From NCBI GenBank assembly GCA_973895155.1, contig OZ316891.1, forward strand, positions 18,560,948 to 18,624,947: DNA of 64,000 nt, given 5' to 3'. The translations under genes were made by a program, and so were the position numbers. Each line of letters begins with the position of its first letter. Position 1 is the first letter of the stretch. The stretch is from Marsupella aquatica. Taxonomy: Eukaryota; Plantae; Marchantiophyta. Below, piece after piece: positions 2,650-59,596 of this stretch. The notes under the pieces were generated by a model, which was given only the letters and a program-made list of their open reading frames with translations, ran no database searches and was not told the origin of the DNA.

Positions 2650-2793
2650 GCGATCTCCAAGAGCGGATTTTTGCTTTGCTGCAACCTCTTCCTAGGAAAG
2701 GCCAGCATAATCTTCTTTGGCTGGTCTTGCCAGTTCAAGCTAATCCATGGATTCCGCCAAGAAATGACCTTGAAACCCTCTGAAATGTTTTTC

Positions 2794-13400: not shown

Positions 13401-13872
13401 CCCGGTACCCCTGCCTCCTCAATAGAGGTCAAGGTACCCCCCGGCTTGGTACCCTTGGCACCCTCAGCTCCTGCTGCCCGATGTACCCCCAGCTCCTCCC
13501 TGCTCGTGGTACCCTCCTACTCGTGGTACCCTGCTGCTCGTGGTACCCCCTATTTGCCCTGCCTTGGCTCGCGGTACCCCCGGTACCCTCCTGTCTTCTG
13601 GCTCGCGGTACCCCCAGTACCCTCCTATCTTCTGGCTCGCGGTACCCCCGGTACCCCTGCCTTGTTCTCCCACAAGACCCAAGAGAGCAAAGGGTGAATT
13701 AAAAAATTAGTTCCTCCCGGGTTCAAATAGCTCCGGCCCCTCCAAAGCCACATGAACACCCACCGGGCTGAGTAACTTTTAAGAAAATAAAGAATTTAAA
13801 AAAAAAACTTGTATATCTTGGCTTATTTATTTACATGCATCATGCCAATAACACCAAACGGTGACTTTATGT
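13399..13872 (-). repeat. Remnant of the 5' LTR (U3 start)
   Basis: Near-identical to ~8290-8782 apart from minisatellite unit number. It lacks the terminal ~15 bp. Confidence 0.8.
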
Positions 13873-15555: not shown

Positions 15556-17319
15556 TTCAAAAGACCATGAATTGACGATTGGATTTTGGTGGCTAACAAT
15601 GCTTTGACTTAGCGACTGCGGTAGGCACGGGTGGCTGAAACAAACATACGGGAATCCTAGGAAAGAACCAATACGGAAGATTTAGAACAGAGTCGAAGAT
15701 GTCAAAACAAATGTTGAGATTTTATTATTCACAAAAATGGACAATCCGTCCAGAAAACAACTCATTCAACCAAAATGGACTTTGCCCGCTCGACTACCAT
15801 CTTCTAAAGTTGGGGCACATATTCATTTGGGTGCCTCGATATCCAACTAAACAACTCGTCTAGTACTAAGTCTTGACAGATGAGTTCTAGGGAAATGTCT
15901 CCTAGGCTGCTTCCTTCTTCAGCCTCTTGATAGTCTAGAGGTGGCCTTCCTCCTGGGCCGTCATGATAATCAGCTTCTTTGTGAGCGTTTGTATCTGACT
16001 CTCACAAAGCTCATCAAGCTTGGCGGCCTCCTTCATCACTAGGCACAACTCCTGACATGTCTGAAGATGGTTCCGCTGAGCTCAAAAATATCTTCCAACA
16101 TAATCCTTTCTAATCAAACTAATCTCTTCATCTTTCTCCTTCACAGTTTCTTGCAGGGTCTCAAGTTCCTCGAGGACATCCTCAGTCATTTGGGACTCCT
16201 TCTCATGTTTATCTTTGATCAATTTCAAATGTTTCAAGGCATTGTCGATTTGGCCTTCAAGGTAACAAATGAGCCTCAGGTGAGTAACATGCTCTACACG
16301 AGAGTTGCGTGAAAGCAAATGGAAATGATATTTACTCCAACGCATTTTCATACGGAAGCATTGATGGGATGAGGATCGTCCAGGATCTACACGAGAGTCG
16401 CGTGAAGATAGAGATAAAAAACATCTAAAACTGATTCGGAGAAAAAGACTGAGGGTTACCTTCAAGCATGATCTGTGCATTCACGGCATAGTACTGGAGC
16501 TCATCTACACGAGTCTCGTGTAGAAAACTTAGTAATTACTAGGTATCGCATACAACAAATAAATCTAATAGGATAATGTCTACACGAGACTCGTGTGGAA
16601 GGAACCGCTGAAATTTGAAATAAAAACAAACAACAAAAAGAAAAACTAAAGATCTACACGAGTGTCATGTGGAAATACCTTCAACTCTGGTGAAAGCTGC
16701 GACCGACATCTCCCGGACCTCTGATTCGGATAGATTTGCCATGAGACCTCTTTGCACGTGTGAAAAAATTCACAAAATATGGATGGAATTGAGCAGAACT
16801 CAGAGGGAGAGACGAATGAGCAAAAGGGCGGAGAATGAGCGAGAGGGCAAAGATGAAGGAATGAGTGAATGAGCAAATCTCCTTAAAATATATACCTAAC
16901 ACGAGGAATGGGCGAGCGTGAAAATGGGCCGGCGTGAAGCGTGAAGACATCATTAAGAGCGCCGCCAAAAATATCGACGAATCTTACTAGACGACAATCG
17001 TGCAGAGCTATCAGCCTGTCACATTCAAGCAGATGTGCTTACTCTTTTGTCATTATCTGTTGTCATTATCTGACATGATTAATTGCGCCGCCAAAATATT
17101 GGAAAATCAGACCACACGACAATCTAGCAGAGCGGCCACCCTATCATTCTTTACCATTATATTCGGGATTTCTATCTGGGAATGGTATTTATCGATTAGT
17201 CGTCCTGATTCTCTAGTCATTCTCTCGCCAGACGTGAATGGTTCCGAGGACAGGTTTTGGCACGGGTTTGAGTCCAAGGACTGCTTCTGGGCACCCAATC
17301 GGTACGTCCCTTCTGGGAT

Positions 17320-31087: not shown

Positions 31088-31717
31088 TCAGCATGCCAGC
31101 AAACTTGAGCATTCATGATTGAAGGCAAAGTACTCCAACCTTGTGATAGTTAAAGTTAAGCAAAATGGTTTTGCAATAAGAAGGAAACTCACCTCGGGTA
31201 TTGGTGGTACATGACGACCATGCATCCCTAAATGGCTAACGACAGTAGTCCTCTCGTGAGATACAACACCCTTGCATCGTCTACAAGGGCAAGGCATCTT
31301 CCGGACTGGTCCAATCCCATGAAGAGTAGCCATGGCCTCTCCAAACCCCTCGTCCAAAGAGGAAGGTGAGTTGTGACCATGGGGCTCTGGATGACGATGA
31401 ACGTCATATGGCCGATGGGGGCTCCTATCTCTCCTATCCTCCTACCTCTGTCGATGGCGATGACGTCGGGATCTATGACGTCTCAACCTCCTCCGCTCTG
31501 GCGAGTAGTCCCTCCTCCTCTCTGAAGAGTAGTCCCTCCTCCTCTCCTGAGAGTAGTCCCTCCTCCTTCTCGGCAAGTCGTCCCTCCTTCGCTCTGGCGA
31601 GTAGTCCCTCCTCCTATCAGGAGAATAATCCCTATCCCTATCATGATGCCGGTATCTGTGACCAACAATCGTATCCCCATCATCTGTGTCATCGGACAGA
31701 GAGTCATAGATCACCAT
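31088..31717 (-). pseudogene. 5' exon of the CACTA transcript: RRRDYSxE repeats + transposase-associated Zn domain
   Basis: KMPCPCRRCKGVVSHERTTVVSHLGMHG has the CPCxxC..HL..G pattern. 24-bp tandem repeats at 31490-31635. Confidence 0.7.
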
Positions 31718-34990: not shown

Positions 34991-36695
34991 ATGTTTTCCC
35001 CTGGGGATCGAGTTAATCTCTTATTGAATGATGAACCGGTTGCGGGTGGGACGGTTTTCAGCATTACTCCCTCGGACTCTTGTCACAACATTCTGATTGG
35101 CGAGCATAGAATCAGTGTTTTTGTTGAGGATGCATTCTTCCACCTTGCTGAGTTACCTTATCCAAACGCAGGGGCGGACCTGGTCGGTGAAAGCTTAAAT
35201 TCAGTAATTTTGTGGGATTGGTCTAGCGTCAGGTTTGCGGAAAGCCAGCGCCCGGTTGATCCAGGTGACAACCAAGAGGAGATTCCTCTAGAACGGGAAG
35301 CAGGTTTTGGGGAGCAAGATGCCATGGGAGACACTGTCCATAGTCAGGACAATGTTCTCTTGAGAGAGGACCTGAGCAATCAAAGCAGGTGGTAGTTTGC
35401 TTTGCTTTACAAAGACGATGATGAGATACTACTGGCTTGAGGGTGTATCACGAATTCACACCCTCAAGCATTGATTAACAATGAGAGAGTTGGAGATGAT
35501 CATGTCGGGATCAATATTCTCACACTGGCCGCCGACAAAAACATCTCAAAGATGACGTTCCCTTATTTTGTTGAGGGAATGCCTTGCACAATCAAATGGC
35601 CTTTGCGGAGAACTCGGATCGAGCTTGGAATGCAATTGTTAAGCGATCTATTGGATCAAAATGAATTCCTGAATCCTGAGCGAGCAATTGTATCATATGT
35701 TAAACCAAAGCGAGCTAGAATAATCAACATTGCAACCCGCAGGCTCCTGAGGAGAAGGAAAGGAAGAAGATTCATAGAAGGCGTAACAGAAAGAAGACTC
35801 AAGAATCTATTGATGCTATTTTCCAGGTTGAGTGCTGCACAAAGAATTGTTGTAGGAGACAACAGTGGGAAGTGGTCAATCAGATTAGAGATGAATTTTA
35901 TGGTCTCTCTCACGCCGATCAACAGATGTACGTTTTCAACCATCTACACGGGAGGGATACGGAAACTATAGAGGCCGGGATGATTATTTTTTGTGGGACA
36001 CATGTCTGTAAAGAAGGGTTTTGGACCATCCATGGTTTCTCCAGAGGAACCTTCTATTCAATCTATAGTCACTATTGGAATGGGGCAAAACTTGGCGTTC
36101 ATGGCAACCAAGGATCAATGAAAACCAAAGACTACGTCACGCTGTTTGTGGAGTCTATACAAAGTGTATTCCAGAAATGTGCAGAGCCCATGCCTCATCT
36201 CCATAAAATTGGAGAGTCTGGAAAGCAGGAGGTCGTGTATAGGGTTCCTATAAGCTACGAGAGGAAAGATGTTTATGAAGAGGCTTGCAAGCTTAACAAG
36301 AATCTTGGAGCTTTTTCTCTTGTCATCGCTACTTTCTACAAGATATTGGAGAAAAAGTTTCCCAATTTTCAGCTTCTTGATCGAAGCAATTTTGCAAAAT
36401 GCGATCTCTGTACTACAATCAAAGAGACTCTTTGAGGCGAGAAGAGACAAGATGTTGTTCTTGAAATCAAGGCCAAAAGAGAACGTCACATGTTGAAACA
36501 ATAGTCTCAGAGAAGCATGTATTATGCAGCCAAACTGGCAGCAATCAAGAGCCAGAGAAGTATCTCTCGGTGATTCATGACAAAATGGATCAAGCCAAAA
36601 CAAGGATACCAAAAATGACTTCAACTCTTAAAAGTCAAGCGGGTAAATCAATTTCGTTACCGATGACGTTGACTAGAATGCTCACGCATGGACGG
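34991..36695 (+). pseudogene. 5' half of the outer-element DUF7869 transposase
   Basis: VAGGTV..HNILI..LPYP..VILW (Tnp1/DUF8039-like), VCKEGFWTIHG, FAKCDLC, IHDKMDQAKTRIP, LTHGR. Confidence 0.75.
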
Positions 36696-37089
36696 TGTCT
36701 GGGGGGAAAATGTGGTTCTTGAGGAAGCACTGGGCCTATGGCTGCTAGTGTCAAGAGAGAACTTAAGTTAAGAAACAAGAAGCCTTAAGGGATGAGTCCA
36801 AAGCCTTATTTCTCTTTTCAAAATCTTCATGATATTAAAAAGTGTATACCAAAAAACCACCAAAAAATGGTATGTATTTTCCAAACTAGACTCAAGAGAA
36901 TTTTACCACCAAAATCTAAGCATATCTTATATGATATTCTCACAATTGTATAAACCTTGAAATGTGCACTTTATAAAAGTAATCAAAATCAAACTCATCG
37001 ATCAGAGTTTAAGTCAAACTCAAAGTTTTACAAAATATAACCCAACTTAAGCCCAAGTGGTTTCAAATGCTACGAGTCCCTCTATTTAT

Positions 37090-40000
37090 CTAGTCTAATC
37101 CAAAGGGGACCGCTTCCCCTTCCTCGGTTCCGGAAGTCCCTGTCGTCAATTCTGGAACAATTGTGGCATCGTCAACCACGCTATCCTCTCCGGCCTGAGG
37201 AATGTCTTCCTCACTCTCCTCATCCATCTCCCCCTGTCCGTCTTCCTCTTCAATGTTATTTGCAAGGTTGAGAATCCTCCCTTTCAACACACTGCTCTGT
37301 CGCTCGTCAATCTCAATGGCAACGCAATGTCTCCCCATGGCCAAGGAGGAGGTTGTCCCAGTCCCTGATCCTGAACAAATATCCAAAACCCAGTCTCCAA
37401 CCTGACTAAAATGACTCACTTCCCAATCTAACAATGCACGTGGTTTCTGATAAACATTCACTGCCTTGTTATCCCCGTTGTGTTTCAGCTTCTTAGTCAC
37501 AGCTGCGCATACAACCACATTGTTCCTTGATTCATTTGTGTCAAAATTGAAGTGCTCCAATGACCGTTTACCATCCTGGCTGTGAAAGCCAATTGTAAAG
37601 CACTCAAAGTTGCTGTTCAATCTTGGTCCACCAGCATTCTTCACATTATCCTTAACCCTGAAAAGTCACAAAAAGTCAAGGAGTTATTTAAACTGAGAAA
37701 CATGGTTCATGAAATCATGAATAACTAATAGTTGTTTTTTTCAAAAAAAATAAAATTCTTACCACACACAATTCTGGAACCCTCCATTACACTCCGCTTT
37801 CAAAATGGTCTTGATGGCCTCATATTGGTCAAGGCTGTGGTGAATGATAATACGCCACAACTTTGCAGTAGTAGCCACCTTGAACGATTGGACCATTTTT
37901 GTGATCTCCTCAGTTCCCCATCCAATAGTGTCTTCATGAAGACATCCAGGCAATGCAAACCCGTAGGGAATATCCACTAAAGCTAATGTGTAAGCCCGAC
38001 CCGGAACCACCTCATGTAATCGCTGAGCATCATGAGTAAAAATATCATAGTGCACATCACCAAACTCTGGATGCTCAAACGAATTTGGATGAAGTTCCCC
38101 CTCTTGGGTTTGCCGACTAGAAGTCTTCATGGATAGCCAATTTTGGGCTTGCACAATATGCGCATTGAATTTGTCCGGGAATGACTTGAGATCTTTGCCT
38201 TCCTCATCTCCCTTCTTTTTCCGGGAGGTGGTATCTTTCTACAAAAAGGAACTGTAGAATTAGAAACAAGGATTCCAAATATTAAATGAATTCAAACAAT
38301 CATTTGAAGAAAGGTGACAGAATCTTACCCATGTCTGGAAAACAGGTACGAAATTCTTAAGCACATTGTCTGTGCAATGCTTAGGGTACTTGGTTTTACA
38401 ACCTGACCAACTCTCCTCGTGTAGACACGTGAGGAAGGCCTTCTGCACCTGCATCTGAAATTTGTGTCGAGTAAATTCGTGACCCATTTCCTGTAAAGAG
38501 AGTTCTTTAGTAAGAACTCTCTGTAACACTGGGCAAATCATATCAGGATCTTTCAAGGCCTGCATGTGTCTCCACTCTGTTAATTTCATGTCCTCATAAG
38601 GCAATTTGGCATCTCCAGACTTAGAGACTTTCTTCTTGCCTTTGTCTCCTTTTTGACCTTTGATCTCACACATCTCCCACTTGTCACAAATCTGTCTCAC
38701 AAATGACCACACAGGATCTTGTCGGAATGCCAACTGAAATAGGTTATCATTGGCATTAAGAACCTCAGCATCCTTTCGTACACCCCAATCCTTGAGATTG
38801 ATTTCAGTAGCACACTCTTTCTTGAAATCCTGGTTGGACGACAATCCATTCTCAACAAATCTCATGTGAATATAATTTACTCTCTGGATTGTCGTCATCT
38901 GTTGTCAAAATTCAGAATCAATATTGTGACTCCACGCAAGGTTTCTTGCCTCTTGCACACTCAATCCCGCAAATATCCAAGATTGCACTCTCCAAAATGC
39001 CTTGTTGTTAGGGAACTGAAGAGCAAGGTCTGCTTTGGCACAGGCTGAATGGTTGCCCCCAATCACATAATAATGGTAATCAGCTTTCCTTGAAAAATCA
39101 AAGTCTTGCCTAGTAGCACACTCCTTCGGATCCACCAAGAGGACAAACGGAGCTGCAAGTGGACTGGCACCTACAGTCTTCATCCGCAAGGTCAATTGGG
39201 TCAAGAAATATGGTTGGATGTGTCGGACCTGGTAAATGGGCAAGCCCACAGCCTTCTCTCTCACTAGAGGGTAAAGTTGACCAATGTCAACGGTCACGGT
39301 CTCCTCTTGAACACCACATCTTCCCAGAATCTCCTCCTGGTACAATACCCGTGCATCCATTGACATTGATTGAGCCTTTTGCTCCAAATGCGTTGGAATT
39401 TTCTCCAAAGTCTTCTTTTTTGACTTTGTAGCACTGGGCTCGGTAGGCTCAGGAGTCATAGCAGGTCGCTTCTTTGAAGAAATGCGAGTTCCAGTCGTAC
39501 CTTGTGCCGACCCACCAGTCAAAGCCGTTCCCTGGGATGATCTGCCAACTTGAGATCCCCCTCCAGATGCTGCTGCTTCCTGGGAGGTTGTAGGCGCTAC
39601 CACGGTCAAAATATCATTGGGTAAAATGCTAGGCCTCGATCCAGAAGGAACACCGGAAGCCCCAGATTTGGGTGGACGACTTACTCCCTTCTCTGCCGAC
39701 CTTTTCCGGAGAATCTCTCTTGATTTTCGGATTGCACTCTTTAAAGTGCTAGCGTGAAATTCAAACACAAAACCGGAAATCTTTCCCGCGACGTCGTGGT
39801 AACATTCCTCACTCGAAAGAGACTTGACAGTCTCAATGATGCTATCGATGTCCTCATCGAGATAGCAGGTGGCAGCCGTTCCAGAAAACCTCTCCACATC
39901 CACGACAATCAAAGTTGATGTTTCTTTCGTTGTGATCAACATGTTCACAACTTCGTCGCCCCGTCGAAATACATCGATGCGGCCGTAATTTACCCACCCT

Positions 40001-40158
40001 AATGCCCCCGATGGAAGCCCCTCAAATACACACAGCATTAGGAAGGGCTTCTTCCATGTTTCCGTCCCTAAGGAAATCGTCCAGGATGAGTTGTGGAAGT
40101 CCGTCAAAGGATGGCGCGAAAAGATGTCATCCACCAGCTCTTCCTGCGACATTGTCAT
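37090..40158 (-). CDS. ParB/Srx-like domain fused to a beta-class N4C/N6A DNA methyltransferase; 3 exons (40158-38329, 38238-37763, 37657-37090), one in-frame TGA at 38905-38907
   Basis: YYVIGGNHS; motif IV LALVDIPYG; CVWVKDN..FE; YQKPRALL..SQVGDWVLDICSGSGTG..MGRHCVAIEID (motifs X-I-II). Both GT-AG introns splice in frame. Confidence 0.85.
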
Positions 40159-40317
40159 GTTTTTGCCTGATCTTCAAACCTGAGAACATACCACAAAATC
40201 AGTCCACTTCAACCCCAACCTGCGAGACAAAGTGCCACAGAACCAAGGAATGTGCCAACAAATGGCTACCGTGTCCTTACGGATCTAACAACGCTCTTGG
40301 CCACCCCAGGACTCCTA

Positions 40318-40425
40318 TCATGAATTCATGAAGGGAGTCTCCCTCTCGCTCCGACCTTCATGAATTCATGAAGGGAGTCTCCCTCTCGCTCCGACCTTCA
40401 TGAATTCATGAAGGGAGTCTCCTCT
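40318..40425. repeat. 40-bp tandem repeat with palindrome TCATGAATTCATGA in the divergent intergenic region
   Basis: Three palindrome copies at ~40318, 40358 and 40398. Similar sites occur at ~41307 and ~44438. Confidence 0.85.
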
Positions 40426-40955
40426 CTCTTTGCTTGTACACCTCGGTGATGCAGAAGGGTATTTAAAATAGGGTTCGGAGGGGGGTGACGTGAAGAAATT
40501 ACTACCTAAAACAGGGTCGAAATGAAGTGCGACCGCGACAACTCGCGACACGTCACCGATGAGTGCTGAAAATGGCACGAAATTGGACAGCGAGATTGTT
40601 TTTCACTCTTTTACAAAGGAAATCCAAATGACATTGAGTGAAAATGAATGGGCTGCCCCGTGTTCCTTGGTTATACATACTAATCACGGATCAGGCGCGA
40701 CTTAGTAAAATTAACCCAGAATCATGATAAATCAATGTTTTTGGGCCAATTATTCATGAATATTTTGGGGTATTAACGGGAAAAAGCTTGCAAATTTCAT
40801 GAATATTTGATATTTTTGAAGTTAAAAAGTCCCAACAATCCGTGAAAAACTATAAATAGGCTCGTTTATTCATGACTCTTGGTCATTATTTTGAGAAGAT
40901 TTGTTAGATTTTACTGATTTTCTGAGTTTCTTGTCAATTTGCACTAGTTTTTCCA

Positions 40956-43900
40956 ATGGCGGCGTGTTACGAATCAGATGATTATTCAGATGGAGTTTCT
41001 GATGATGTTTCATTGCCGGATGGCCCCTGCACAGTGGTTGGCCCAGATATCCCTGGAATAACTACTGTTTTAGATATGCCACCCCCCACCCCTATGAGCA
41101 AGTTAAAACGTAGTCCTTTACGACTTGCAATTAGTGGGAAGAAATCATTGGTCGGTGGTAAAGAGAGGTCAGGGAGCTCCTCTGACTCCTTGGAGAGTAT
41201 TGGTCCCCCTGGACGTCAAGTTGTATCTCCTTTGTCACCAACAAAGGACAAATTGGGGAGTAATCTGGAAGGTTCAATGCCTATTTGGATGTCTGGGAAA
41301 CGGTCTCATGAATTCATGAAGACTGGATTTGGAAAGACGAAGAAGGCACTAAGTGGGGAAAATGACAGAGATTTTTGCAGTCTCCAAAGTGTTCAGCGGC
41401 TGAAGCAAATGCCAAAAAGTAAAACCTTTGGTAAGCCAACGTCGGAAACATTTCACAGGGGGATGAGGGAAGAAACTAGACGACCAGTGTTATTGAAAAG
41501 TATTCCAGAAAAGAATTCTAATGTGCGTTCCTCAGTTTTACCTAGGAGTCATGGTGTTGGGGCAGGGAGCGGATCAAGTCACGGAAACTCAAACAGGGAA
41601 ACGAACCTGGTGGAGAGGGACCCTAGGAAAATATTGAAAGGGTCCCTACACGGTAATGGAGGGATTTCTGAAATACGCCCAGGTATTCCAAGGCTGCATA
41701 GAGTGAAGGAAGAGCCTCCATCTCCGGAGGCTGCAGGTCTGGAATCTAGGCATGTTCAGAAGCAAATGTTGGTGACCATTTCATCATGAAAGCGAGTCTT
41801 CGGAGAGTGGGGAGGATGATGATGTTCCGGTGGCATCTAGTCGTTACAAACGTACGAGCAACGCCACTTTGTGTGAAACAAAGTTGAAAGAGGAGGATAT
41901 CAAGAAAACAAATAGTAAGTACTGTTGTCAGAGTCATTGTCTCCTAAGTCTATCTCCAAAAGAAATTCGTGAGGCGCGTTCTAAATTTTTGAGGCAGAAA
42001 TCTCAGGATCGATCTTTATCTTTGCAGTGGCTTATAAAGCGAGACGGAAATGAAGGAGGGAGGCAGACTATATCTTACACGTTTGGTCAAAAGAGTATTT
42101 GTCGGAAAGCTTTCAAGCTTATATTTTGCGTTGGCAATCATAGATTAAATAGAATTTTGAAATTAGACAACCAAGACTTAGGATATTCTAAACCAGTTGG
42201 ACGCCCTCCATCTGTTAAAAGATTAGTCTTGGTCAGTTGGCTTAGGTCGTTTTTTGAGACACGCGTGGAAACATTGCCAAATAAAGAAGTTTCACATTTA
42301 CCGGATAATTATTCAAAGCTGGAGGTATGGAAGATCTACGACTCCAACTATGCCAAGATTGATGAATCTTCAAAAATATCCTATCGACAATTCTTGAAAG
42401 TTTGGGTTCAAGAATTTGGTCATGTGAAGATTCCTCCAGTCAATCGATTCAGTGCTTGCGCGGATTGCGAGGAGTTCAAATCAATTCGGGACAAAGCTGT
42501 CTCGGAGACCGAAAAGAGTAAGTTACTTACAAGTTTGACAAGTTTTTGTTTCAAGAATATGGCTTAACACATGATTTCTAATTTTTTTTTAAGAAACTAA
42601 CAAGTTGTTTTTCCAGGGCGAGGGGAAATTATGTTACAAAAACATAGAGACCAACAATCCAAAGAACGTGAGAAACTCGCGAAGCATCGTAAGAAATGTT
42701 TTTCAAATTCTGATAAATATTTGGGAGTTGTCATTGATGGGATGGATCAGAAGAAGACAAGGTTGCCTCATTGGCCGCGGCCCCCAAAATCGGTGGACGA
42801 AACATGTTTGATCCAAATGCACGTTGTCGGCTGCCTGGTTTTCAATGGTGCATTATTTTCAAGAGTGTTTCTTAATTATCCTGTATTGCATAATGATGGA
42901 AACTTGACAGTCACAATCCTGCAAAGGGTGTTTCACGAATGGGAAGAAAAGCCTGGTGGCTTGCCGCCTGTTCTCTATCTTCAACTTGATAATACCAGTA
43001 GAGAAAATAAAAATAATTTACTCTTTGCCTATCTTCATATGTTGATTCGAAGAAAGGTTTTTCGGAAAATCAAACTAGGATTCTTGTTGGTTGGACACAC
43101 ACACGACCAAATAGATCAAATGTTCAGTCGATTTTCTAAACGACTAGCAAGGTTTAAGGCATTCACATACGAAAGCCTATGTGATATTATTTGTGAATCA
43201 TATCAACCCCAACCAAATATCACTCTTTTAAAGGAAACATATGATTTCCGTCAATATGCCTTCTCAGATCCACCTTTAGTCATTGAAAGGATTCGAAATG
43301 TTACCTTCCACCACCAGTACAAATTTGCATTTGACAAGTTGGAAAATCAAGTTCCAACCCAATGGGGGAAGAAGTTTTCCACGGACTCAACTTGGAAACC
43401 TGACGGAGGCGTGAAATTTTTGAGGGAAGAGGAGCCAGAAAAGGTGATGGGTTGTGCTCCCGGATTACCCCTTTTCAAAAAGGGGGATAAGAACGTTACA
43501 AGGACTCAACCAAATATGTCTAGTTCTTCAAGAATGACTTTGAAGGAGATGGATGATTCGTTAAATGAGATTCAAAAGGGAATACTTGCAGTTGAAACTT
43601 TATTCTCAGAAGAGGAAGTGAACTGGTGGAGAATGTTTTTTGAAGAGCAACGGGAATTGAATAAATCTTTGCTCCTTGATCAAAGACCATTGATTTTCCC
43701 TTTTCAATGGCCACGCTCCCAAAGGGAGATTGCTGTTGCTGCTGAAGTTCCCAGAGTCCTTGTCAATGAAGAGGAAATTGAAGAGAGAGTATACGGACCT
43801 ACCAGAGATATATACGTGGGTCCTTATCGGAATCAAGGAAAGATAGATGCAGAGAAGGAGAATATGGAAGGAGACTTTTTGGATCTTGAAGTCAACACTT

Positions 43901-44349
43901 ATATTTCTGTTGCTGGAGAAGAATCGGAAACATTTTGGGTGGCCAAGGTGGAAAGAATTGACCAGCGCGACGAGTTCAACATTCCAAAAATGATTTATGT
44001 TTTATGGCATGCTACAAAAACCGGGTCAGATCCTTGGAAAGCCAAGTACTTACCAGAAGTCTTAAACTACGAAAAGAAGAAAAGTGGTCGTGGGAAAGGA
44101 ACTTTGAAACCAATATGGTTTCACCAAGAGCTTGATTTATCTTCAACGACTGTTTTTGCTTACAACTTCATGTTGACAAAATCTGATACATTGTACAAAA
44201 AGACAATAGATCGAATCAAAATCCGATTGACTGAATTTTTGGCAGAAGAGAAAGAGCAAGAACAAGAGAATGGATCAACTAGAACCCCGCTAGGAGATAA
44301 ATCTAGGGATATTTCGTTTCAAGAATTGAGGACTTCTGGATCTGAGTAA
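40956..44349 (+). CDS. DUF7869-family D-D-D transposase; intron 42518-42616, probable 1-nt frameshift near 41787
   Basis: ICRKAF, FSACADC, VIDGMDQKK, LYLQLDNTSRENKN, FLLVGHTHDQIDQMFS. The long ORFs are otherwise intact and lie between the TIRs. Confidence 0.85.
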
Positions 44350-45979
44350 TGAAAAGTAGTTATTGTTTGTGACATTACCATTGAAAAACATGGATAACTT
44401 GAAAATTTACAAATTTTCAAAATGCCTTTACCACTTATTCATGAATTCATGGTTAAAGTTTCTTGAGAAATTTGTAGTTTAATATTATCTTAGTGGGTTG
44501 TGTTTCAATTCAATTAGATGGTGTCATTTCTATTCTCCTTGTCTTCTTTTCACAATAATGTGTATCAGGTTAAGTTGTAGTAATTTATTTTCTGGTTTTA
44601 AATGACAATGGCTTTTGGAGGTGATTTAGTTGTTGTTTCAAAAGACACCTCGTGTAATTGTGAGACCATTGTAGATAATAGTGTTGTATTTGAGATCATT
44701 TATTGGTGGAATATAACTTCAGATGAATTTGGTCATTTTAGGTGTCAAAACATAGCTAGTTTATGTCATATTTTGTTCGCTCCATATTTTTGCTCTAAAA
44801 TAGGTGCTAATTTTTGCACTTTTTTTGACTTTTTCGTTGTTTTTCTGATTTTTTGGCTAGAGTTCCTAAAGTATGGGCTTGTTACTCATCATTTAAGGCT
44901 TCTTGTTAAGATCATGACTACTATTCTAGACTGGGTAGCAGACACCACAATGAATGGTTTCGTGGATGAAAGCACAACATCATAACCCCTTTCTCCATAC
45001 CTACGGACTATTGCCTCCTTGGCGGCTACCTTGGGTCGAGTTACAAAACGAATATCTCCCAACGAGAAAAAAACGGGAGGTTCATCGGAGGGAGGTTTGT
45101 TGAGATCCATCTCAATATAAGATAAAAATTGTGCAAGCCCAATCTTGCCCATAAACTACATAAGGGTATACAATCGGCTCTATTGAATTTAAGATCGCAA
45201 TTGCAAATGCTTCTCCAAAGTGAAAAGTCATATGCTGACGCATGATCTCTTTTTGGAGTACATGAATTCTAATAAGGAAAGGATTAGGGAGAGGAAGAAC
45301 AGGTACTGGTCTGGGCATTATTATACTATCAAATATTCCATCCAACTAATATTCATTCTAATGACAAGATATAGAATCATTCAACGAAAAGATCATTCAT
45401 TTCAAACAAATACTGTGCATTGAGTTAACTCTAAGTATATACATACAGATATTCATCTTAATAAGTTTATCTTCTTTTGAATAAAAACGCTATCTGAAGG
45501 TCCAACGCGCACAAATTACCACCGACTGAGCTAAGCTCCAAGCCAGCGTGCATGCGTGGGTCTACTTCATAAGGGTTTCATCCAAAAGGAGCATATGATG
45601 TTAAGGTATTGTTGAGCACTTTGTATCTCTTTAGGACTTAATAACTATCTCCTATCAAATGATAATATTTGAAGGTCCAACTCATACAAAATATCTCTGG
45701 CCAAGCCGAAGCTCTAAGCAAGCGTGTATGAGTGGGTCTACTTCATAAGGGTTATATTCATAGAGGAGGTCATCAAGTCCAATGGATTCTTAAGGCTTCA
45801 CAACTCGGTTGATGAAAAATGGGGAGTGAGTGGAGAGAGCCCCTCTCCTCTTTATTTATAGTGCTAACATCTCAAGCACACGGATCAAGCATGGCACACA
45901 GATGGAAGCCATGTGTCATATATCCAAGGCAAGTAAGTGTGCTAGTACTGTAGTTACGTGAGTGGAGCAACTGTAGGCA

Positions 45980-46355
45980 GTACACTGTAGCATGCACACT
46001 GTAGATCGTACATTGTAGCATGCACACTATAAATCGTACACTGTAGCATGCACACTGTAGATCGTACACTATAGCATGCACACTGTAGATCGTACACTGT
46101 AGCATGCACACTGTAGGTCTTGTACTAAAGCATGCACACTGTAGATCGTACACTGTAGCATGCACACTGTAGATCGTACACTGTAGCATGCATACTGTAG
46201 ATTGTACACTATAGCATGCACACTATAGATTGTACAATGTAGCATGCACACTATAGGTCTTGCACTGTAGCATGCACACTGTAGATCGTACACTATAGCA
46301 TGCACACTGTAGGTCTTGCACTGTAGCATGCACACTGTAGATCGTACACTATAGA
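45980..46355. repeat. 28-bp minisatellite CACTGTAGCATGCACACTGTAGATCGTA, about 13 units
   Basis: Directly visible; each unit is two 14-bp subunits. Confidence 0.95.
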
Positions 46356-46447
46356 CTGTATATAATACGAGAATTCAAACTACTATCCTATACTACTAAG
46401 CTATACTTAGAAGGAACTTACTAAACAAAGAATCCCCATGACAATGG

Positions 46448-48228
46448 GATCCCAGAATCTATGCCCATTTTGCACTTGGTGGATTGTGGGCGAGTGATCC
46501 TGGTTTCACAGTCTTGTCTCTTTTGAAGTTGTTCAGGGATCTTGAGTCATTCTCTGGGGATAAGACTGGAGACTTATCGCTGAGGAGCACAGACGTGTCT
46601 GATCCTATTTTTGTTGCACTTTTAGATCGGCGGGCTTTTGAGATTGGCTATCTAGAAAGGAAGAATATGGATTTTGACCATTTTAAAGGACTTGAAAACG
46701 AGGCTCCGCGCAAGCCTTGCATGGAACCCTCGTCCTCTGATTCTTTTCGACCACTTCCACGCCATTTGCACCTCCAACTTGACAATTCAGGGAAGGACAA
46801 TAAGAATCAGACCATGATCGCATATTGTAGTGAGCTTGTTCTTCGAGGAGTGTTTGAGTCCGTTACACTCTCCTTCCTGATGGTTGGTCATACTCATGAG
46901 GATGTTGACGCATTCTTTTCACGAGTAGGAATTCGGATTTATAATCGTGAGTTACCTTCTTTAGTTTGATGGCTGAAGTTTGGGAGTGTGAGAAGAAGCA
47001 TCCAGTCCCAAGATTCATTCGAGAGGTTGTCGGATACAAAGCTTATGTTTCTTCTTATGTGAAGAAGATCCAAGGTCAGTTGGCCCCTGTGCAGTTCTTG
47101 TTTTCAATGAAAGAAAATACACCTATTTATCAATATCGGGAGAAAATTGATTCGCTGTGGCTACCTACAAAAGGTCACTCCATTTGGAAAACTACTGGAA
47201 AGGACTCTGTGTTTCCCTCCGGAAATCCTCTTTCAAAACAAATGGAGTCAACTCATAAGCGAGCGAGTGACATTCTTGAATACCTCGTTCATTACGTTTC
47301 ATGGCTAAAAGCCGCTTAGAAAGATGTCACATCAGAGGGATATCATTTCCAATCCCCAAAAATTGAGTATTGGGAAAATGTCATCAGGGTCTTCGAAGGT
47401 TTCCTATGCTCTGTGCCTAATCTGGAGAGGGACTATCTGCTACTCGATGGGTTTTGGCCAAGAACTAACCATGGAACCGGATATCAAGCTGAGGTTGGGA
47501 TTTCTGAGAATAACATTGGCTCAGTCAACGATGTCATGTGCCTTGAGCGTGAACTTCAGGAAGATCAATATGAGAGACAGATTTGTTGACCACCGCTCGG
47601 AGCGAGAAAGGTCAAGATTCTCCCCACTTGAGGATATTAAAAAGGATACGTTTGTTATTCTTCATCCAACAGATGAATTCAAACAAACAGTTCCCCTTTG
47701 ATTCTGGCTAGGAAGAGCCATGGATCGCGTTATGCGGGTTCCGGATGATGCTCATGCTGGGGAGTTTGAGGTGGAATGGTGGAGACCTGTCCATCAAAAA
47801 TTGTCTGTCCCAGACTCTGAACGATATCGGGTTTGTTTCAATTCTAAACAGTCATGGGAAGTTGATCCAAATTACCAAAGTCCTACAATCCGACACGACT
47901 GCTCGGGGGTCTCACTCCGCGAAAATCTCATATCACGTGCGACGAAGTATAGGGTCCGTTAATTGGGTTTCTCGGAAGACTTAAGAAGATTTGTGTAAGA
48001 ACAATAGGGCCAACTTTATATGTTGGACAACTTGTAAGAATAATAGGGATATTAATATTTTTGACTTTGTAGATGGAAGGCATACAAAGAAGTTAGTGAG
48101 ACCCCCGAGCACGACTGGCTCCTTGCAATGTCTATAATCAATGGTTGGAATTCAAAGGCAAAGGGTAAAGTGAAAGTTCCAGTTCATGTTCTTGAAAGCA
48201 TGAATGCATACATTTCCGAGAACTTCTG
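46448..48228 (+). pseudogene. 3' half of the outer-element DUF7869 transposase
   Basis: LHLQLDNSGKDNKNQ, SFLMVGHTHEDVDAFFS, FWPRTNHG, FEVEWWRP..WEVDP. Contains frameshifts. Confidence 0.85.
47902..48109. mobile_element. MITE, CTCGGGGG family, 208 bp
   Basis: TIR CTCGGGGGTCTCAC and 8-bp TSD CACGACTG. Confidence 0.92.
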
Positions 48229-50898
48229 AACGGAGTGTTTGTTTCTGCACGAGGCTCGTGTAGGGCCTCCTCATTTTGCCTTACCAAGGAAGGTTTAGGT
48301 AGACCATTTGGATCTGCACGAGGGTCGCATGGAGCGGCCTCGCTCTGGTCTCTAGGCTAGGGTCTACTAAAAGCAACATGGCTGTAGACCCGAGATTTGC
48401 ACGCTTTGGCCGTTTCTTGGTCTTGTCCAAATACGGAACTCCTCACTCTCTTTTCCCATTCTGCGGTTTCTAATTCACTTTCAATCTGCTGTTAATGTTA
48501 GTTTCTGTCGTCATTTGATTTGTGTTAGTTATCATATTTCTTAATCTGATTTTGAGAGGATCTCTTGAGTTCTCTCGATGAATCCACCAGTGACATCCAA
48601 GGACCTCGCCGTGACCAACAACTCAATAGAGGTTTCCCTGCCTCATAGCTCAAAGGAGGGGAACACCCCAAGGAGGTCATCCAAGATTTACACGCCTGCG
48701 GATGGGTTTGACCGTAATTGCAATTCTGACAAAGAAGGATCTTTTTTAAGAGAGTGTACTCGATGTAAAAGGTTTTTCTTGTCAGAACTCGATGGAGATA
48801 CTGTGGCTTTCCCGATTGTAAGACACCAAGAGAATAAAAAATGGATGATTCAAAGATAAGCCTTGGAGGAAATTCCGTGCCACCTATGGAGGGGCAGGAG
48901 GCATCGGGTGCAAGGAAAGCCAGAAAGATGCCCAGGGAGACTCTGAACAAAAGACGCCCCGAAAGACGCATGAAGGAAAACGTTAATGTCTACTATGGGA
49001 AGGGAAAGAAGCAATGGCGGGCTCCGATGGACCATCGAGCTTGGGCAAAGGAAGCATTCCTTGACTGTCGCAAATCCACTCCGGACTTGGATGAGTGGAT
49101 GCCATCTTCGTGGAACGATTAAGATTTGAAGCCATTTGGGAGAGTCTTAAGTGTTTGAAGCATTTTGAGGATAACGCGAGTCTTGCGTAGATATTCGACG
49201 CCGGAAAATTTAGATTGTGTTTGCTCACTTTTGTTTATGCTTTAAGCTGGTAAAGGAGATTTCCTTATCTGAAAGGTGTTTAGGAACCTGGACGTTGGTT
49301 GGAGGAATGCCTCTTGCAACTGTGAGATTGTAGATCAACCCTAAACCCAAATCTCTTTCTGCGCTAGTCTCGCGTAGAGCGTTGAGGTCCTTTTGTTCCT
49401 CCGCGATTGTCTTACCCACATCTCGGTGCCAGCTTCCTTGGGTAGTTTGGTTGGAGTCATCTTCCCAACAGATTTTGAATTCAGTTTTGGCATCAATGGC
49501 ATTGGTTTGAGGGATGCCTCTTCCAACATCAACTATTTTTGTGAATAATGAAAAGTTTTCATTTTCAAAATCATGTGCACGTTGTCAATCACTTGCATGA
49601 TATCTTCAACTCTGATGTATCTCGTTTTTTTGTGTCACCTCTTTCCTAAAACTTTGGAGGACACGATTATCGCGTAGAGTACACCGAGCAAGTAGACTTG
49701 ATTTCAAGTTACCCAATAGAGCTCAGCTTAGCGCAGATTCCTTGTCCGACGGCTGTCTAATCCTTGGGCTCTAGAAATCCCCCCCTTTGGGCCAAGCTTC
49801 TGACCCGGAGGCCTTCCTCTTGAGATTTTGTTAACATTGTGAATCATCTATGGGGTGATTAGAGAGGTCGAGTGATTCACAGAATTGGTCTCTGTCGCTC
49901 CTCACTCAGAGAGTTGACACTCTCGAGCGTAGAATATCAGAATTGGAAAGACGTAGCCCATCCCAGGTCGTGAAAATTAAAATGGGTGAAGGTGAAAGGT
50001 CAAAAGTGTTTGGCAAAAAAACATCTGACAGCGAACCTGCCCCCCGGTTGGTATCCCAGGCCTTGGAGTTTCAGGCTTCGGGGGGAAGATATCCGGAATT
50101 TTACTAACAGAAAGAAAGGGCTCTATAGAAAGTCCCTTGTCATACGCGGAAAGATCCGCGATATCTTCGATAGTTAGACCGTTGACCCATCAATCAAGGA
50201 ATTTATATTATGGAAGAAAAGTTCAATATAAAAAGGGCTCTAGCACATTTGATCTTAAATTCCTTCATCTTTGCATCTGTCGATAATAAGGGCAAGCTCC
50301 ACAAAGATTTGCACTATATAAAATGAGCACTCGATAGGATGAAAGAGAAAATCGACAGTTTCAATGGACAAGGTGCCCTTTGTGTTCATTCCAAAACTCC
50401 AATCTGAAAATTCCAAAACTCTAAACTAAATATTCCAAAACCTCATTTTAGAAATTCCAAAACCCCTTCTCTAAATTTCCAAAAAGCACTTTTCAATATT
50501 CCATTCTTGGGAAAATTTTCCAGAATTAGTGAAATGTCTGATAGAAGGAACATACGTTATTTCTTGTTCATCTGTGCCTCATTCCTTGGTTTTTATTTAC
50601 ACCCTCACTTTGAGTTCTGCTCTCTCTCTGTTAGAGGCTTCAACCTAGAAGGTAGCTCACTTTCTAGATTGAAGCCAAGAAAGTGTTGAGGCTTCAATAT
50701 GCGCTCTCTAATTATTTTGTTTTTTTGGTATTGTTACAACTACCACAAGTAAGTGTGACACAATACCCACTACTTTGAATGCCCATTCAAGCTTTACTCT
50801 TAAATTGATGGTGAGTACCAATTGTGCCCCAGTCCAATTTTACCCCATCCATACCAGTGTCCTCAAGTCATGTGAGTCTGAAGATTTCACTCTATCAT

Positions 50899-56079: not shown

Positions 56080-58010
56080 CTACTTAGAGATCAAGCTCAC
56101 AATCCACACTGAAGAGTCTAACCGGAGATATTGAGGGTTCCTCGTCACCTTCTTCTTGATAAGTTCCTCATACCGTTCCCACATCACCTCCACAAGCTCA
56201 TTGCCAAAATAAGCTTGGAAAACATTATCCGTCACAGATTTGAAAATGCCCATCACCCTTTTAGATATTTCACTAGCATTTGAGGTTGCAAAGAATTCAG
56301 CGGCACTGATTTCATATCTGTGCAATTTAGCTGTCAACACAGTAAACAAAGAAGCACAAGATGCTAGTGCTTCGTCTACATCTTCAATTGTACGGGAATA
56401 GATTGGAATGCTGAATGCATCACGCTTTTGCTCAGATAGGAGGCCCTGTAAAGAGGTATGTGATTGATTTAGCGGCCAAGGTAGCCTCAGAGTATCACTA
56501 TTGAAAACGAAAGGAAGAAAACAATTTAAAAGATTAGCAATGAAATCCCACGAACTTGAATCTAAAGTGCAAAGTACGAGTGACCCCCGAATAACCTTGA
56601 TCGCATGCATGAATTCCGAAAGATCTGGGTCATACTTATTATGAAGGACCTTGGCTGGTACTGTGAGGTCCCCATGAACGAGTGAGAAGACTAAGCGGTA
56701 GAAAATCATTGCTCTATCATGACGTGCAAGCTCAACTACCGAAGACTTTTCAAGTTCATAAGAATCCTTACGAGAATCACAGACTTAGAGAAAATGCATG
56801 AGTGGGTCCTTGCAACTGCGTACCTCCGCGCTTAGCTCACTCCAGACTTCATCGAGATCCGCCGAAAATGCATCCACAAGATCATCCATGGTAGAATTTG
56901 GCTCCGGGGCTGATTTCCCCATAAACACCATAAACAACAATCCTCCTGAAACCAGCTCTGTTGATCTAACTAGGAGAAAGTTCCTCAGGTCCAAGGAGGC
57001 TTGTGGTTTAAAAGTTTCTGGTATAGAGCGCGATGTAGGAAACTGCCTTATCCGTCTGCTTCCTCGTCCATCTGCAGAGTTCTGCAAATCATAATTCCAT
57101 TAAGCTTTATAGTCAAACTTCCAATCAGGATAAGCAATCGACATCGTTTTGAGTGGTTGCAGAGCTGCCTTACGATCCATGAGTATGTCTAATGCTTTCA
57201 AGGACAAGCTTGACGGGAGTAATCACTATCGCTGCTGTTTGTCGTTTCACCTAGAGCAAGAGATTCACTCTGTCTCTGTTTTCCTAAACCAATTTCATCA
57301 CTAACGATGAAGAGTGTATCGGCATCTACATCAGTCCAAAGCGGAGTCCATTCAACAGTGTGCATAAACAGTCAACCAGAAAATCCTTTGCTCAATAGGG
57401 ATTCGGATGTAAACGAACACAAGCGAATAGCCTGATGAGGATGACAAACCTCAGAGAGCCAATGAAGACCGCTGGACGAATGGAAGACATGGACAGATGA
57501 CCGAGGAAAAAGACGGCCAAAATAGGAACCTGGCACTCCAGATGCGAAGAAATTCTGCGCTCTAGGATCATTGCCTAAGTGCTGGAACAGAGTATTGAAG
57601 TCATTACTGGTCAGATCATTAAAATATGCTTGGAATTCAGTATCTTGGGGCAACCTGTGTCTCAGTTTCTCAACCATGAAAGATACAATGTTGACGGCGT
57701 TAGGACCCGAAGAGCTGCCGAGATCTGCCAAGATCATTGGGCTTTCCTTAGAGGGAAGAGTCACTCGTTCGAGCGCTTCACCGAGAACTAACTGCGACAC
57801 TTGCTCGACGAATGAGCCTTGCAATTTCGAATTCCGACTGTAGCTCTCTTTCCCATCTCCGCTAACCATGGCGAAAACGTTCTGACGAGGTTCTCCTGTC
57901 TGGTCCACCAAGTACAAGCCATCACCAGGACCACCAGTCCTACCCTGATGACTTGCCTCCGTAATCACTCCATCCTGAGTTCTTTCCGCAGCCATCGTCG
58001 TGATATTCAT
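56080..58010 (-). CDS. SABATH-family SAM-dependent carboxyl methyltransferase (Methyltransf_7); exons ~58010-57450, ~57081-56824, 56445-56080
   Basis: SYSRNSKLQ, ADLGSSSGPNA, YFNDLTSNDFNTLF, GVPGSYFGRLFP, GLHWLS, DLRNFL..RSTELVSGG, KRDAFSIPIY. Donor sites are clear; the exon 2 acceptor is uncertain. Confidence 0.88.
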
Positions 58011-59596
58011 GCACGCCCTGTGTTTGTTCTATTTGACGAGACTCTTTGGTGCACACAAATGTGCAAACCAAGAGAGCAGAACTCACGTGTAAGGTTGAAA
58101 AAAGCGATGGTTTCATAATCAACTTTCGAGACTTCCAACTTACCGGTGCAACATAATCAGTACTCAAGCAGCATAAGAGAATTGCATCTGGATTCCCCTT
58201 TCGCTTTATACCGATTACACATACTTGCATAACCAACCTTTCCCGAAGAAAGATTCCCATAGGGATGATCGAACAAGGCAACTGAAGACCGACTGGTCAA
58301 TGAGTACGCTCGGCTACGCTGCAGTGAAACAAGCTCTTCATCAAACAATAATTCTGCACATCAATTGTTGACTCACATCCGCACGGAGGTATTCTATGTT
58401 GCGTCCGCACGGAGGTATTCTCATCCGCACGGAGGTATTCTATGTTGCGAGCAAACAGTAGATTTTGATAGCTAGACAATAATGGTTCCAATTTTTTGCT
58501 TTTTGGTGACTTTTACATTTTTTGTGTTTTTTTAAAGGCTGCAAATGGCTAGCTCGCTAGCAAAAAGGGAGTCCCCAAAAGAGATGTTACCAGCCAGGTA
58601 GTTGATAACAGCAAGGTAGTTGATAGGGAGGTAATTGCATGTAGAAAAATAGGGGTCATGCAAGAATTTTTTCTGCTGGTGCGAGGAAAAATTTTACTGT
58701 TTGCTCACACGTTACAATTACCCATCCGCACGACAGATTTTCGTTTCACGTCAGCTAATTTCGTTCCAATCTAGTTGCAAGGTTTCAGGATATTACTCTC
58801 CCTGAATCTGTTATGCAATGGAGTCTTTCATATGCAAGGGCTCGTACTCTAATCGAACCTGAGTGCTGTAGCAATAGTATCTGATGGTATCTGGCAGTGC
58901 TGCATATGAGAGTCTCCAACTGTGTACGCTTACTGTATACATTACCCTGGACCCAAACCCAAACCGGGGGACCGGCTTTCTAAACCGGAGAGTCCGGGGG
59001 AGCGCAAGACCAGGCCGGGAAGGGGTCCGGGAGAAGTCAGGACCAGTTGGGGAATAAAGAGGAATATGCATCATTTGACCCCTTTCTGAGCTGTAATGTG
59101 ATGAGTTTCAGTGTCAGGCAACACATAAACTTGCCAGTAAGCTCAACCCGGGCTTACTGGGTTTGGTCAACATAGCATTATAGTAGACCCCAATAACCAG
59201 TGGAGATACTCCATTGCGACTAGTACTTTGCAAAGCTACACCTTTATTGTCAGTGTGAGATATGAAAGGAGCAAAAAGGAGGAACTTCATTAACCACGGC
59301 TTACAGGTGCTGTCCATTTTTTTCAGGGCATTGCAAAATGAACTTCCTTGGTTTTCTCTTAGCAAATTTCAGGTATTAATGGAGAAAAATGATTCAGAGA
59401 GAGAAATCCCTGTAATGTCATTAAATGTGCCTTGGTTCTCTCCCACTACCTACCAGAAACCCACCCCGCGTTTTAACGTTTTGGCTAAGGTCCCTGACAC
59501 TTTTTCAGGCCAGACTCTTTCTCTAAATGCTGTCGCTGCCCCTGCCCGCCTTTCAATTACTTGGATCACGAGGAAGCTAGCAGAGTCAACAGAAAA

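Follow-up and report, generated by a model that had tools for sequence, protein, structure and literature searches.

We have analyzed a window of 64,000 nt from the liverwort Marsupella aquatica (OZ316891.1, positions 18,560,948-18,624,947, forward strand; all coordinates below are window positions), and in particular a DNA transposon of 8,134 bp that it contains at 36774-44907. This element carries two genes arranged head to head, one for a transposase and one for an accessory protein in which a ParB-like region precedes a predicted beta-class amino-methyltransferase. We consider it about an even chance (probability roughly 0.5) that the accessory protein binds dyads within its own element and methylates that element, N6-methyladenine (6mA) being the most likely product. 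The gene arrangement and the idea of self-modification have already been published for algae (PMC12477816); what is new here is a land-plant member whose catalytic motifs are kept, together with a parS-like dyad that was absent from the initial annotation of this DNA.

The element and its copies

The ends of the element are marked by the following features.

36770..36773, no strand: left target-site duplication AAGA (sequence and empty site)
36774..36805, plus strand: left terminal inverted repeat (TIR), AAC.. terminus (sequence)
44876..44907, minus strand: right TIR, ..GTT terminus (sequence)
44908..44911, no strand: right target-site duplication AAGA (sequence and empty site)

The 32-bp TIRs are complementary at 27 of 32 positions, with the outermost 15 all paired, whereas the next best inverted match across the whole window reaches 22/32. 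Contigs from four public read runs (X1, X2, X4 and X5) were aligned to 36300-45400, and in three of the four runs 36766 is joined directly to 44905, with 8,138 bases skipped. This number exceeds the 8,134 bp of the element by 4, so that the ends and a 4-bp duplication are both established. Duplications of 6 bp (TTAAGA) or 7 bp (GTTAAGA) were considered because seven letters fit either side of the empty-site joint, but were rejected, as with 8,138 bases in all the termini are symmetric only for 4 bp. The transposon has inserted into an older DUF7869 transposase gene, itself broken, which occupies 35719-36773 (plus strand) and resumes near 46442-46969, the surrounding right part being 44912-46969.

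Copies of both genes are found in X1 as contigs of 0.6-1.8 kb with 2-5 differences and depths of 484-621. Such near-identical, deep contigs across both genes point to a recent, joint amplification of the transposase and the accessory gene. Private alleles and one diverged contig in X1 have depths of 14-22; the low-depth alleles lead to a rough estimate of 25-40 copies in the family, which must be read with caution, as depth is not a copy number and single-copy depth is uncalibrated. Other copies have 6 extra bases at 40267 and 16 extra at 40495, in the region between the genes, and some have internal deletions of 1.2-2 kb. A joint between 41323 and 44848 in X1 (side of 23 letters) was not trusted.

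A target-site duplication of 4 bp is a feature of Sola transposons (PMC10741241), and the termini AACAA..TTGTT have their first three bases in common with the AACCG..CGGTT of Sola1-1_Ec32 from Ectocarpus. The single insertion site seen, AAGA, is not of the AWWT type reported as preferred by Sola elements; it fits the bias of Sola1-1_Ec32 towards sites that end in A. The element is best explained as a Sola1-like cut-and-paste transposon, present in many copies, of which the copy in the window is dead, with a stop at codon 418 of the accessory gene and a frameshift in the transposase gene. The initial annotation had described a complete element with TIRs of ~32 bp, an AAGA duplication, a D-D-D transposase and a divergent, spliced gene of three exons. 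All of this is confirmed except for the word complete, which is true of the ends and not of the genes.

Structure and conservation of the accessory gene

The accessory gene has 957 codons and two introns, both GT..AG. It was compared with 22 related loci from metagenome contigs (L001-L022), of which L001-L003 are close, and with relatives in protein databases.

38329..40158, minus strand: exon 1, with an N-terminal domain (aa 1-165), a linker, a ParB/Srx-fold region (aa ~285-417, GGNHS) and a ParB helix-turn-helix (HTH)-like helical region (aa ~419-610); fold from relative P0160
38239..38328, minus strand: intron 1, 90 nt, position common to L001-L003
37763..38238, minus strand: exon 2, with motif IV (DIPY), which aligns with the DPPY of CcrM in the family profile
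37658..37762, minus strand: intron 2, 105 nt, containing one dyad, position common to L001-L003
37090..37657, minus strand: exon 3, with the remaining methylase, YQKP, motif I (the S-adenosylmethionine loop) and an acidic tail; PF01555 E 1.6e-8
38905..38907, minus strand: premature stop, codon 418, restricted to a small share of copies
40159..40955, no strand: region between the two start codons, 797 bp, with three tandem dyads and four single TCATGA

The motifs lie at codons 367 (GGNHS), 699 (DIPY), 839 (QKP) and 859 (VLDICSGSGTG). As both intron positions recur in all three close loci, the splice model is supported independently of RNA. The 797 bp between the genes are likely to act as a two-way promoter. 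At the position of the stop, sense codons account for 574/588 (X1), 1,857/1,885 (X2), 3,627/3,702 (X4) and 31/31 (X5) depth units, and the residue is Arg in L002, L003 and P0160. Exon 3 has 1 extra base at 37105 relative to the family. Exon 1 has no match in Pfam or PHROGs, and its first 165 aa (39664-40158, minus strand) have neither a Pfam match nor a confident model (pLDDT, the predicted local distance difference test score, about 40); this N-terminal domain keeps ~35% identity in L002 and L003.

Between the window and L001-L003, the rate of nonsynonymous change (dN) in the ParB, helical and methylase regions is 0.19-0.41, and that of synonymous change (dS) ranges from 1.6 to saturated. In the six region comparisons with finite dS the ratio dN/dS is 0.08-0.21. 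These low ratios indicate purifying selection on the accessory gene.

The methyltransferase domain

The C-terminal part of the accessory protein matches PF01555 with 35.2 bits against a cut-off of 26.7, and motif IV precedes motif I, which is the order of the beta class. Foldseek searches with the AlphaFold model of P0001, a 63%-identical relative (pLDDT 90), placed CcrM first (E 8e-13), followed in order by M.BceJIV, MboIIA, RsrI, N4CMT (E 5e-10), M1.HpyAVI and PvuII. A profile of 53 family sequences ranked five solved 6mA enzymes (E 7e-18 to 6e-14) above N4CMT (1e-7) and PvuII (3e-6). The class assignment of the initial annotation is therefore upheld.

Of 152 proteins, 66 relatives cover motif IV. 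It begins with D in 61 of them and reads D-x-P-Y in 43, DPPY in 3 and SPPY in none. The DIPY of the window fits three of the four positions of the strict motif (D/N/S)PP(Y/F/W), and differs from the SPPY of the DN4MT1/N4CMT type. DIPY and DFPY are also present in one viral protein, a predicted methylase, and one ParB-fused protein of prokaryote type. Neither the window nor L001-L003 have lost the Asp, Pro or Tyr of motif IV, the YQKP motif or the GxG loop, apart from one Gly-loop change in L003. The methylase is probably active, and if so its target base is most likely adenine; 6mA is favoured over N4-methylcytosine (4mC).

The ParB-like region and a predicted dimer

Pfam ParB_N does not match the accessory protein, and the ParB/Srx-like domain named in the initial annotation is seen by fold only. 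Domain labels in the Atlas, which serve as leads only, assign DUF3723 to 31% and ParB_N to 11% of family members. The fold was read from the model of P0160, a protein with identities of 43% and 65% to the respective halves of exon 1; the model is confident from residue ~310. This model has five fold matches to ParB/Noc at E <= 0.001. VIA-align gave Z 9.4 for PadC (root-mean-square deviation, rmsd, 3.1; 100 aligned), Z 8.1 for pNOB8 ParB (rmsd 5.3; 213 aligned, model residues 312-613) and Z 5.0 for the KorB DNA-binding domain, where values below 8 may reflect merely a common arrangement. The model of P0160 has a ParB/Srx fold and then an HTH region, the latter weak. At most, the accessory protein would be a ParB-type binder, and it is not classed as ParB.

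A homodimer prediction for residues 300-654 of P0160 scored 0.60 against 0.01 for the best control, with contact agreement of at least 63% and pLDDT of at least 73. The mark set for this score was reached by 17 of 29 solved eukaryotic homodimers and by none of 30 single chains. The accessory protein is predicted to dimerise, although the pass of P0160 may stem from likeness, since solved ParB dimers exist.

A candidate binding site

The top-ranking palindrome of the element is TCATGA, with 19 occurrences against a shuffle mean of 4.3 (maximum 12 in 1000 shuffles); 14 of the 19 lie in the non-coding 24% of the element. L003 displays the same excess (12 vs 2.4) and L002 has a variant form. From the forms in the window, L002 and L003 a candidate dyad was defined; the spacing test followed its refinement on L002 and L003. 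The consensus of the dyad is CCTTCATG-N4-CATGAAGG, with the core CATG-N4-CATG; it is 16-20 bp long, two-fold symmetric and of parS-like size. The dyads in the element are listed below.

37704..37723, no strand: dyad TCATG-AAAT-CATGA, intron 2 of the accessory gene
40315..40414, no strand: three dyads CCTTCATG-AATT-CATGAAGG in a 40-bp tandem, cores at 40319, 40359 and 40399, intergenic region
41303..41322, no strand: dyad in transposase exon 1
44436..44455, no strand: dyad that carries a single mismatch in its flank, 450 bp short of the right end

The element has six copies of the core, whereas its shuffled versions have 0.18 on average and 0/1000 of them reach six. Among the close loci there are 3 occurrences in L002 and 6 in L003 (0/1000 each) and 2 in L001 (2/1000), all with shuffle means <0.2. 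Every other spacing from 0 to 12 occurs at most once, and the other 55.9 kb of the window contain a single CATG-N4-CATG. A separate scan that allowed one mismatch is less stark than the exact count: it found 10 matches in the window vs 3.4 expected, a number reached in 2/100 shuffles, and 7 of the 10, including all 5 exact ones, lie inside the element. A scan of viral contigs for the 20-bp dyad gave 16 single matches, which by our own estimate is about chance level.

The position of the dyad is also shared. It is found in intron 2 in all four sequences (window and L001-L003) and upstream of the accessory gene in the three that reach there. The window and L003 also have it within the 5' part of the transposase coding sequence. 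The arms are constant and the middle four bases variable. With only one of six dyads subterminal, a regulator appears to fit better than a transposase that binds the ends. The reader of the dyad is reasonably likely to be the accessory protein and not the transposase or some host factor.

Distribution of the family

Searches of 50%-identity clusters with P0001 returned 410 relatives, of which 30 were looked up. Those with species names come from Chara braunii (5), Riccia sorocarpa (2), Ginkgo biloba (1) and Adiantum nelumboides (1); Calypogeia and Ceratopteris provide further named relatives, and of all those with a name the one from the liverwort Calypogeia fissa is nearest to the methylase (63% over 400 aa). 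On the basis of these sequences, the family spans Chara, liverworts, ferns and Ginkgo. One Chara braunii protein, P0126 (CBR_g41648; 1,825 aa), consists of two tandem ParB-plus-methylase units and may be a fused annotation of two copies.

The pairing with a transposase recurs. Upstream of the accessory gene, L003 has a divergent transposase start (E 4e-7 to the window N-terminus, same MAACYE start) and L021 a divergent transposase (E 2e-18); the other 20 loci, most of them short or ending first, have none except for a weak match in L022. In Riccia sorocarpa the transposase R1sor_010795 and the methylase fusion R1sor_010796 have consecutive locus tags, and their contigs are equally long. A mere hint of the same pairing is that the longest contigs of P0152 (methylase) and P0093 (transposase) both measure 8,915. 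The more distant loci, L004-L022, have lower GC, are closer to the Ginkgo protein and keep GGNHS; from their motif IV, described below, they may represent a catalytically altered branch.

A quick-method tree was made of 42 methylase domains over 213 columns, after four candidates without a C-terminal match were dropped. In it, support is 96 for the pairing of the window with Calypogeia and 99 for a clade of five Chara-type rows; a single branch (Shimodaira-Hasegawa-like approximate likelihood ratio test 92, unstarred) sets the ten prokaryote-type rows apart. No donor is claimed, since this key branch is unstarred and the tree has no DN4MT1 or N4CMT row. In single-pattern weak searches, none of 131 stretches from one-per-species prokaryote genomes and 1 of 179 from viral contigs was a relative. 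Two of the seven weakest profile matches are ParB_N plus N6_N4 fusions, and the phage matches adjoin terminase genes. The suggestion in the initial annotation that such elements are a possible vehicle for amino-methyltransferases in land plants finds no support in the case of DN4MT1 of Marchantia: SPPY is absent from the 66 relatives that cover motif IV, and there is no Marchantia protein among the named matches.

Comparison with known systems

In Ectocarpus, Sola1-1_Ec32 has a gene for a ParB-like plus N4/N6 methyltransferase protein opposite its transposase, for which self-binding and self-modification have been proposed, and its best match is a Physcomitrella Sola1 (PMC12477816). It resembles the Marsupella element in this fusion gene within a TIR element, in the 4-bp duplication, which in Sola1-1_Ec32 tends to end in A, and in the AAC..GTT termini; it differs in its size (21.5 kb vs 8.1 kb), its imperfect 282-bp TIRs (vs 32 bp), its protein (1,104 vs 957 aa) and its host, a brown alga rather than a land plant (PMC12477816). 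The text of PMC12477816 available to us names no binding site, and the likeness of its protein to that of the window is by description only. In Bostrychia, Plavaka elements have the accessory genes PAG2 (PF01555) and PAG3 (ParB-like), and inverted-repeat arrays beside PAG3 are proposed as its binding sites (10.1101/2025.02.11.637652). These too are PF01555 and ParB-like genes on a DNA transposon, but the superfamily is EnSpm/Plavaka, and the ParB and methylase parts are in separate proteins, fused to oxygenase and SET domains (10.1101/2025.02.11.637652). A literature search, at the level of listings for most papers, found no report of a ParB-methylase gene on a land-plant transposon, or of a named binding site.

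The ParB_N plus N6_N4_Mtase fusions of phages and prophages, as well as CcrM, M.RsrI, M.MboIIA, M1.HpyAVI and M.BceJIV, have the same beta-class motif order and fold. These phage and bacterial enzymes differ in their ~25% identity, their mostly DPPY motif, their canonical ParB arginine motif and their lack of introns. DN4MT1a/b of Marchantia and N4CMT of bdelloids are likewise eukaryotic beta-class amino-methyltransferases of prokaryotic type; as described, they differ in having SPPY, in making 4mC and in being host genes rather than transposon cargo, and N4CMT has a chromodomain while DN4MT1 has no extra domains. Mobile elements with an epigenetic enzyme of their own, or with a self-binding anti-silencing protein, are known from DAM retroelements and from VANC of VANDAL. 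DAM belongs to another methylase family and is found on DIRS and long terminal repeat (LTR) retrotransposons, the DAM-LTRs being given as absent from streptophytes (10.64898/2026.05.21.726589). VANC removes 5-methylcytosine (5mC) and is not a methylase, and VANDAL is called the only proven self-modifying case (10.1101/2025.02.11.637652).

Proposed function and alternatives

In the proposed mechanism the accessory protein would dimerise, and the dimer would bind the element's own CCTTCATG-N4-CATGAAGG at the promoter and intron. The bound dimer would then deliver the methylase in cis, writing most likely 6mA. This methylation might tune or protect the expression of the two head-to-head genes, or resist 5mC silencing; the purpose, we infer, would be self-regulation or anti-silencing. 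A bolder version is that of self-addressing in the style of parS and ParB, in which the dimer loads at the dyad and lays 6mA over its own copies, keeping them active, the module having been on Sola1-like elements since before the split of Chara and land plants. We put this forward as a tentative idea, and rather doubt that all of it is correct.

Several observations weigh against binding with self-methylation. The HTH match is weak (Z 5.0-5.3). The GxxR motif of ParB-CTPases, with its arginine, is nucleotide-binding and is seen as GGHQR or AGHGR; the sequence here, GGNHSA, has Ser in place of the Arg of the phage GGHQR motif, which makes a CTP clamp doubtful. In motif IV the second position is Pro in only 3 of the 66 relatives, and motif I often has Cys where Phe is usual. 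Among L004-L022 motif IV is DIPH or DIPR in 16/16 covered loci, and there are 3 dyads in 74 kb, which is background; neither catalysis nor the dyad would thus be family-wide. Three of the six dyads in the window are one tandem repeat, L001 and L003 each include one dyad that is coincidental within coding sequence, the introns of L001-L003 are alike, and the motif had been refined on L002 and L003, so that the independent evidence is smaller than the dyad counts. Finally, retrotransposon DAM enzymes showed no activity in E. coli (10.64898/2026.05.21.726589).

In one alternative, the accessory protein acts as a regulator by binding the dyad, and its methylase domain is a pseudo-enzyme or a reader, which binds S-adenosylmethionine or DNA but transfers no methyl group. 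The non-canonical residues (I for P in motif IV, C for F in motif I) agree with this, as does the retention of the gene in the DIPH/DIPR clade despite the loss of Tyr, and the methylase domains of DIRS elements have been judged inactive (PMC4738411). Against it, the window and L001-L003 have kept the catalytic motifs at dN/dS of about 0.1-0.2, and DIPY is found in a viral methylase. We regard this alternative as unlikely.

Recognition of the dyad could instead fall to the transposase or to a host factor, in which case the methylase would be untargeted or would act on another substrate, such as RNA, host DNA or excised ends. The subterminal regions contain one dyad and one half-site, and TTCATGAA fits TTCnnGAA, the core of the heat-shock element. 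However, five of the six dyads are internal (promoter, intron and coding), nn is AT in 11 of 23 TTCnnGAA sites, and in the L002 form the middle differs but the CATG arms do not. A two-fold site also suits a ParB-like dimer, with the reservation that the predicted dimer may reflect likeness. A reader other than the accessory protein is, in our opinion, quite unlikely.

An active methylase that writes 4mC, blocking or masking 5mC on the element, has in its favour that motif IV also has an Asp in M.BamHI, which makes 4mC, and that N4CMT is among the top fold matches. The N6_N4 domain has also switched base repeatedly (PMC8885841). This is nevertheless improbable, given that no relative has SPPY and that the profile puts 6mA enzymes 7-10 orders of magnitude above 4mC enzymes. 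The one-off capture of a host or bacterial gene as a functionless passenger, a refuting outcome named in the initial annotation together with a dN/dS near 1 and the lack of an amino-methyltransferase fold match, none of which came about, can be dismissed almost entirely: the stop in this copy would agree with it, but is rare among copies, both genes are co-amplified and the accessory gene is under purifying selection, and the same pairing is found in L003, L021, Riccia and Ectocarpus (for the last, PMC12477816).

The transposase gene

The transposase gene (40956-44349, plus strand) has one intron and about 1,099 codons, and DUF7869 (E 3e-51) is the sole Pfam name for its product, whose database matches are proteins without a name.

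40956..42517, plus strand: exon 1, with a low-complexity N-terminus and a cysteine-rich region; one dyad inside (41303-41322)
42518..42616, plus strand: intron, acceptor 42616 preferred, 42604 and 42622 likewise in frame
42617..44349, plus strand: exon 2, DUF7869 domain (Pfam)
42730-42750, 42976-42993 and 43093-43119, plus strand: conserved Asp motifs IDGMDQ, LQLDN and GHTHDQIDQ, respectively

Among the relatives in the 120 of 178 matches listed, 107-120 cover these sites, and Asp is kept in 96-99% of them (IDGMD 103/107 and 108/110, LQLDN 119/120, IDQ 115/116). This conservation is that of a DDD transposase, and from it we infer which three Asp make up the triad. The frameshift is a 5-nt deletion at 41785. 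In X1, X2 and X4, one or two contigs per run have the missing 5 nt and account for roughly half of the depth summed there; X5 has no cover here.

Other features of the window

The stretch 3926-4291 (minus strand) is ParB-like (E 4e-5 to the accessory-family profile), and an open reading frame (ORF) at 1144-2691 (minus strand) joins the degenerate tail of an N6_N4 methylase (PF01555 E 0.001) to a Ulp1/C48 protease that follows it (E 1e-31); a 21-bp palindrome is found at 3882-3902. The region 1144-4291 (minus strand) is possibly another transposon with a ParB-methylase-protease gene. The end of a 604-aa ORF at 13867-15681 (minus strand) resembles by eye the start of a ParB-type domain, and has no match in Pfam, PHROGs or the family profiles. 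A host gene for a SABATH-type carboxyl methyltransferase (PF03492) is located at 56080-58028 (minus strand), and broken pieces of LTR-retrotransposon pol (protease, reverse transcriptase, RNase H and integrase, by eye) at 8774-13428 (minus strand). Tandem arrays are found at 45914-46438 (14/28-bp units), 31463-31654 (24-bp) and 50388-50485 (22-bp).

Implications

Two algal genome papers conjecture that ParB-methylase accessory proteins bind and modify their own transposon. The Marsupella family offers material on which this can be tested: an 8-kb element, near-identical open copies, catalytic residues that are still in place and a candidate site that has been defined. 6mA has been described as lost from multicellular lineages (10.64898/2026.05.21.726589). 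Should self-methylation prove true, the element would supply plant DNA with real, localised 6mA, in a lineage from which genomic 6mA is believed to have disappeared. If the enzyme is active, a transposon-borne adenine methylase of land plants would be a specific exception to that loss, and a natural site-addressed methylase.

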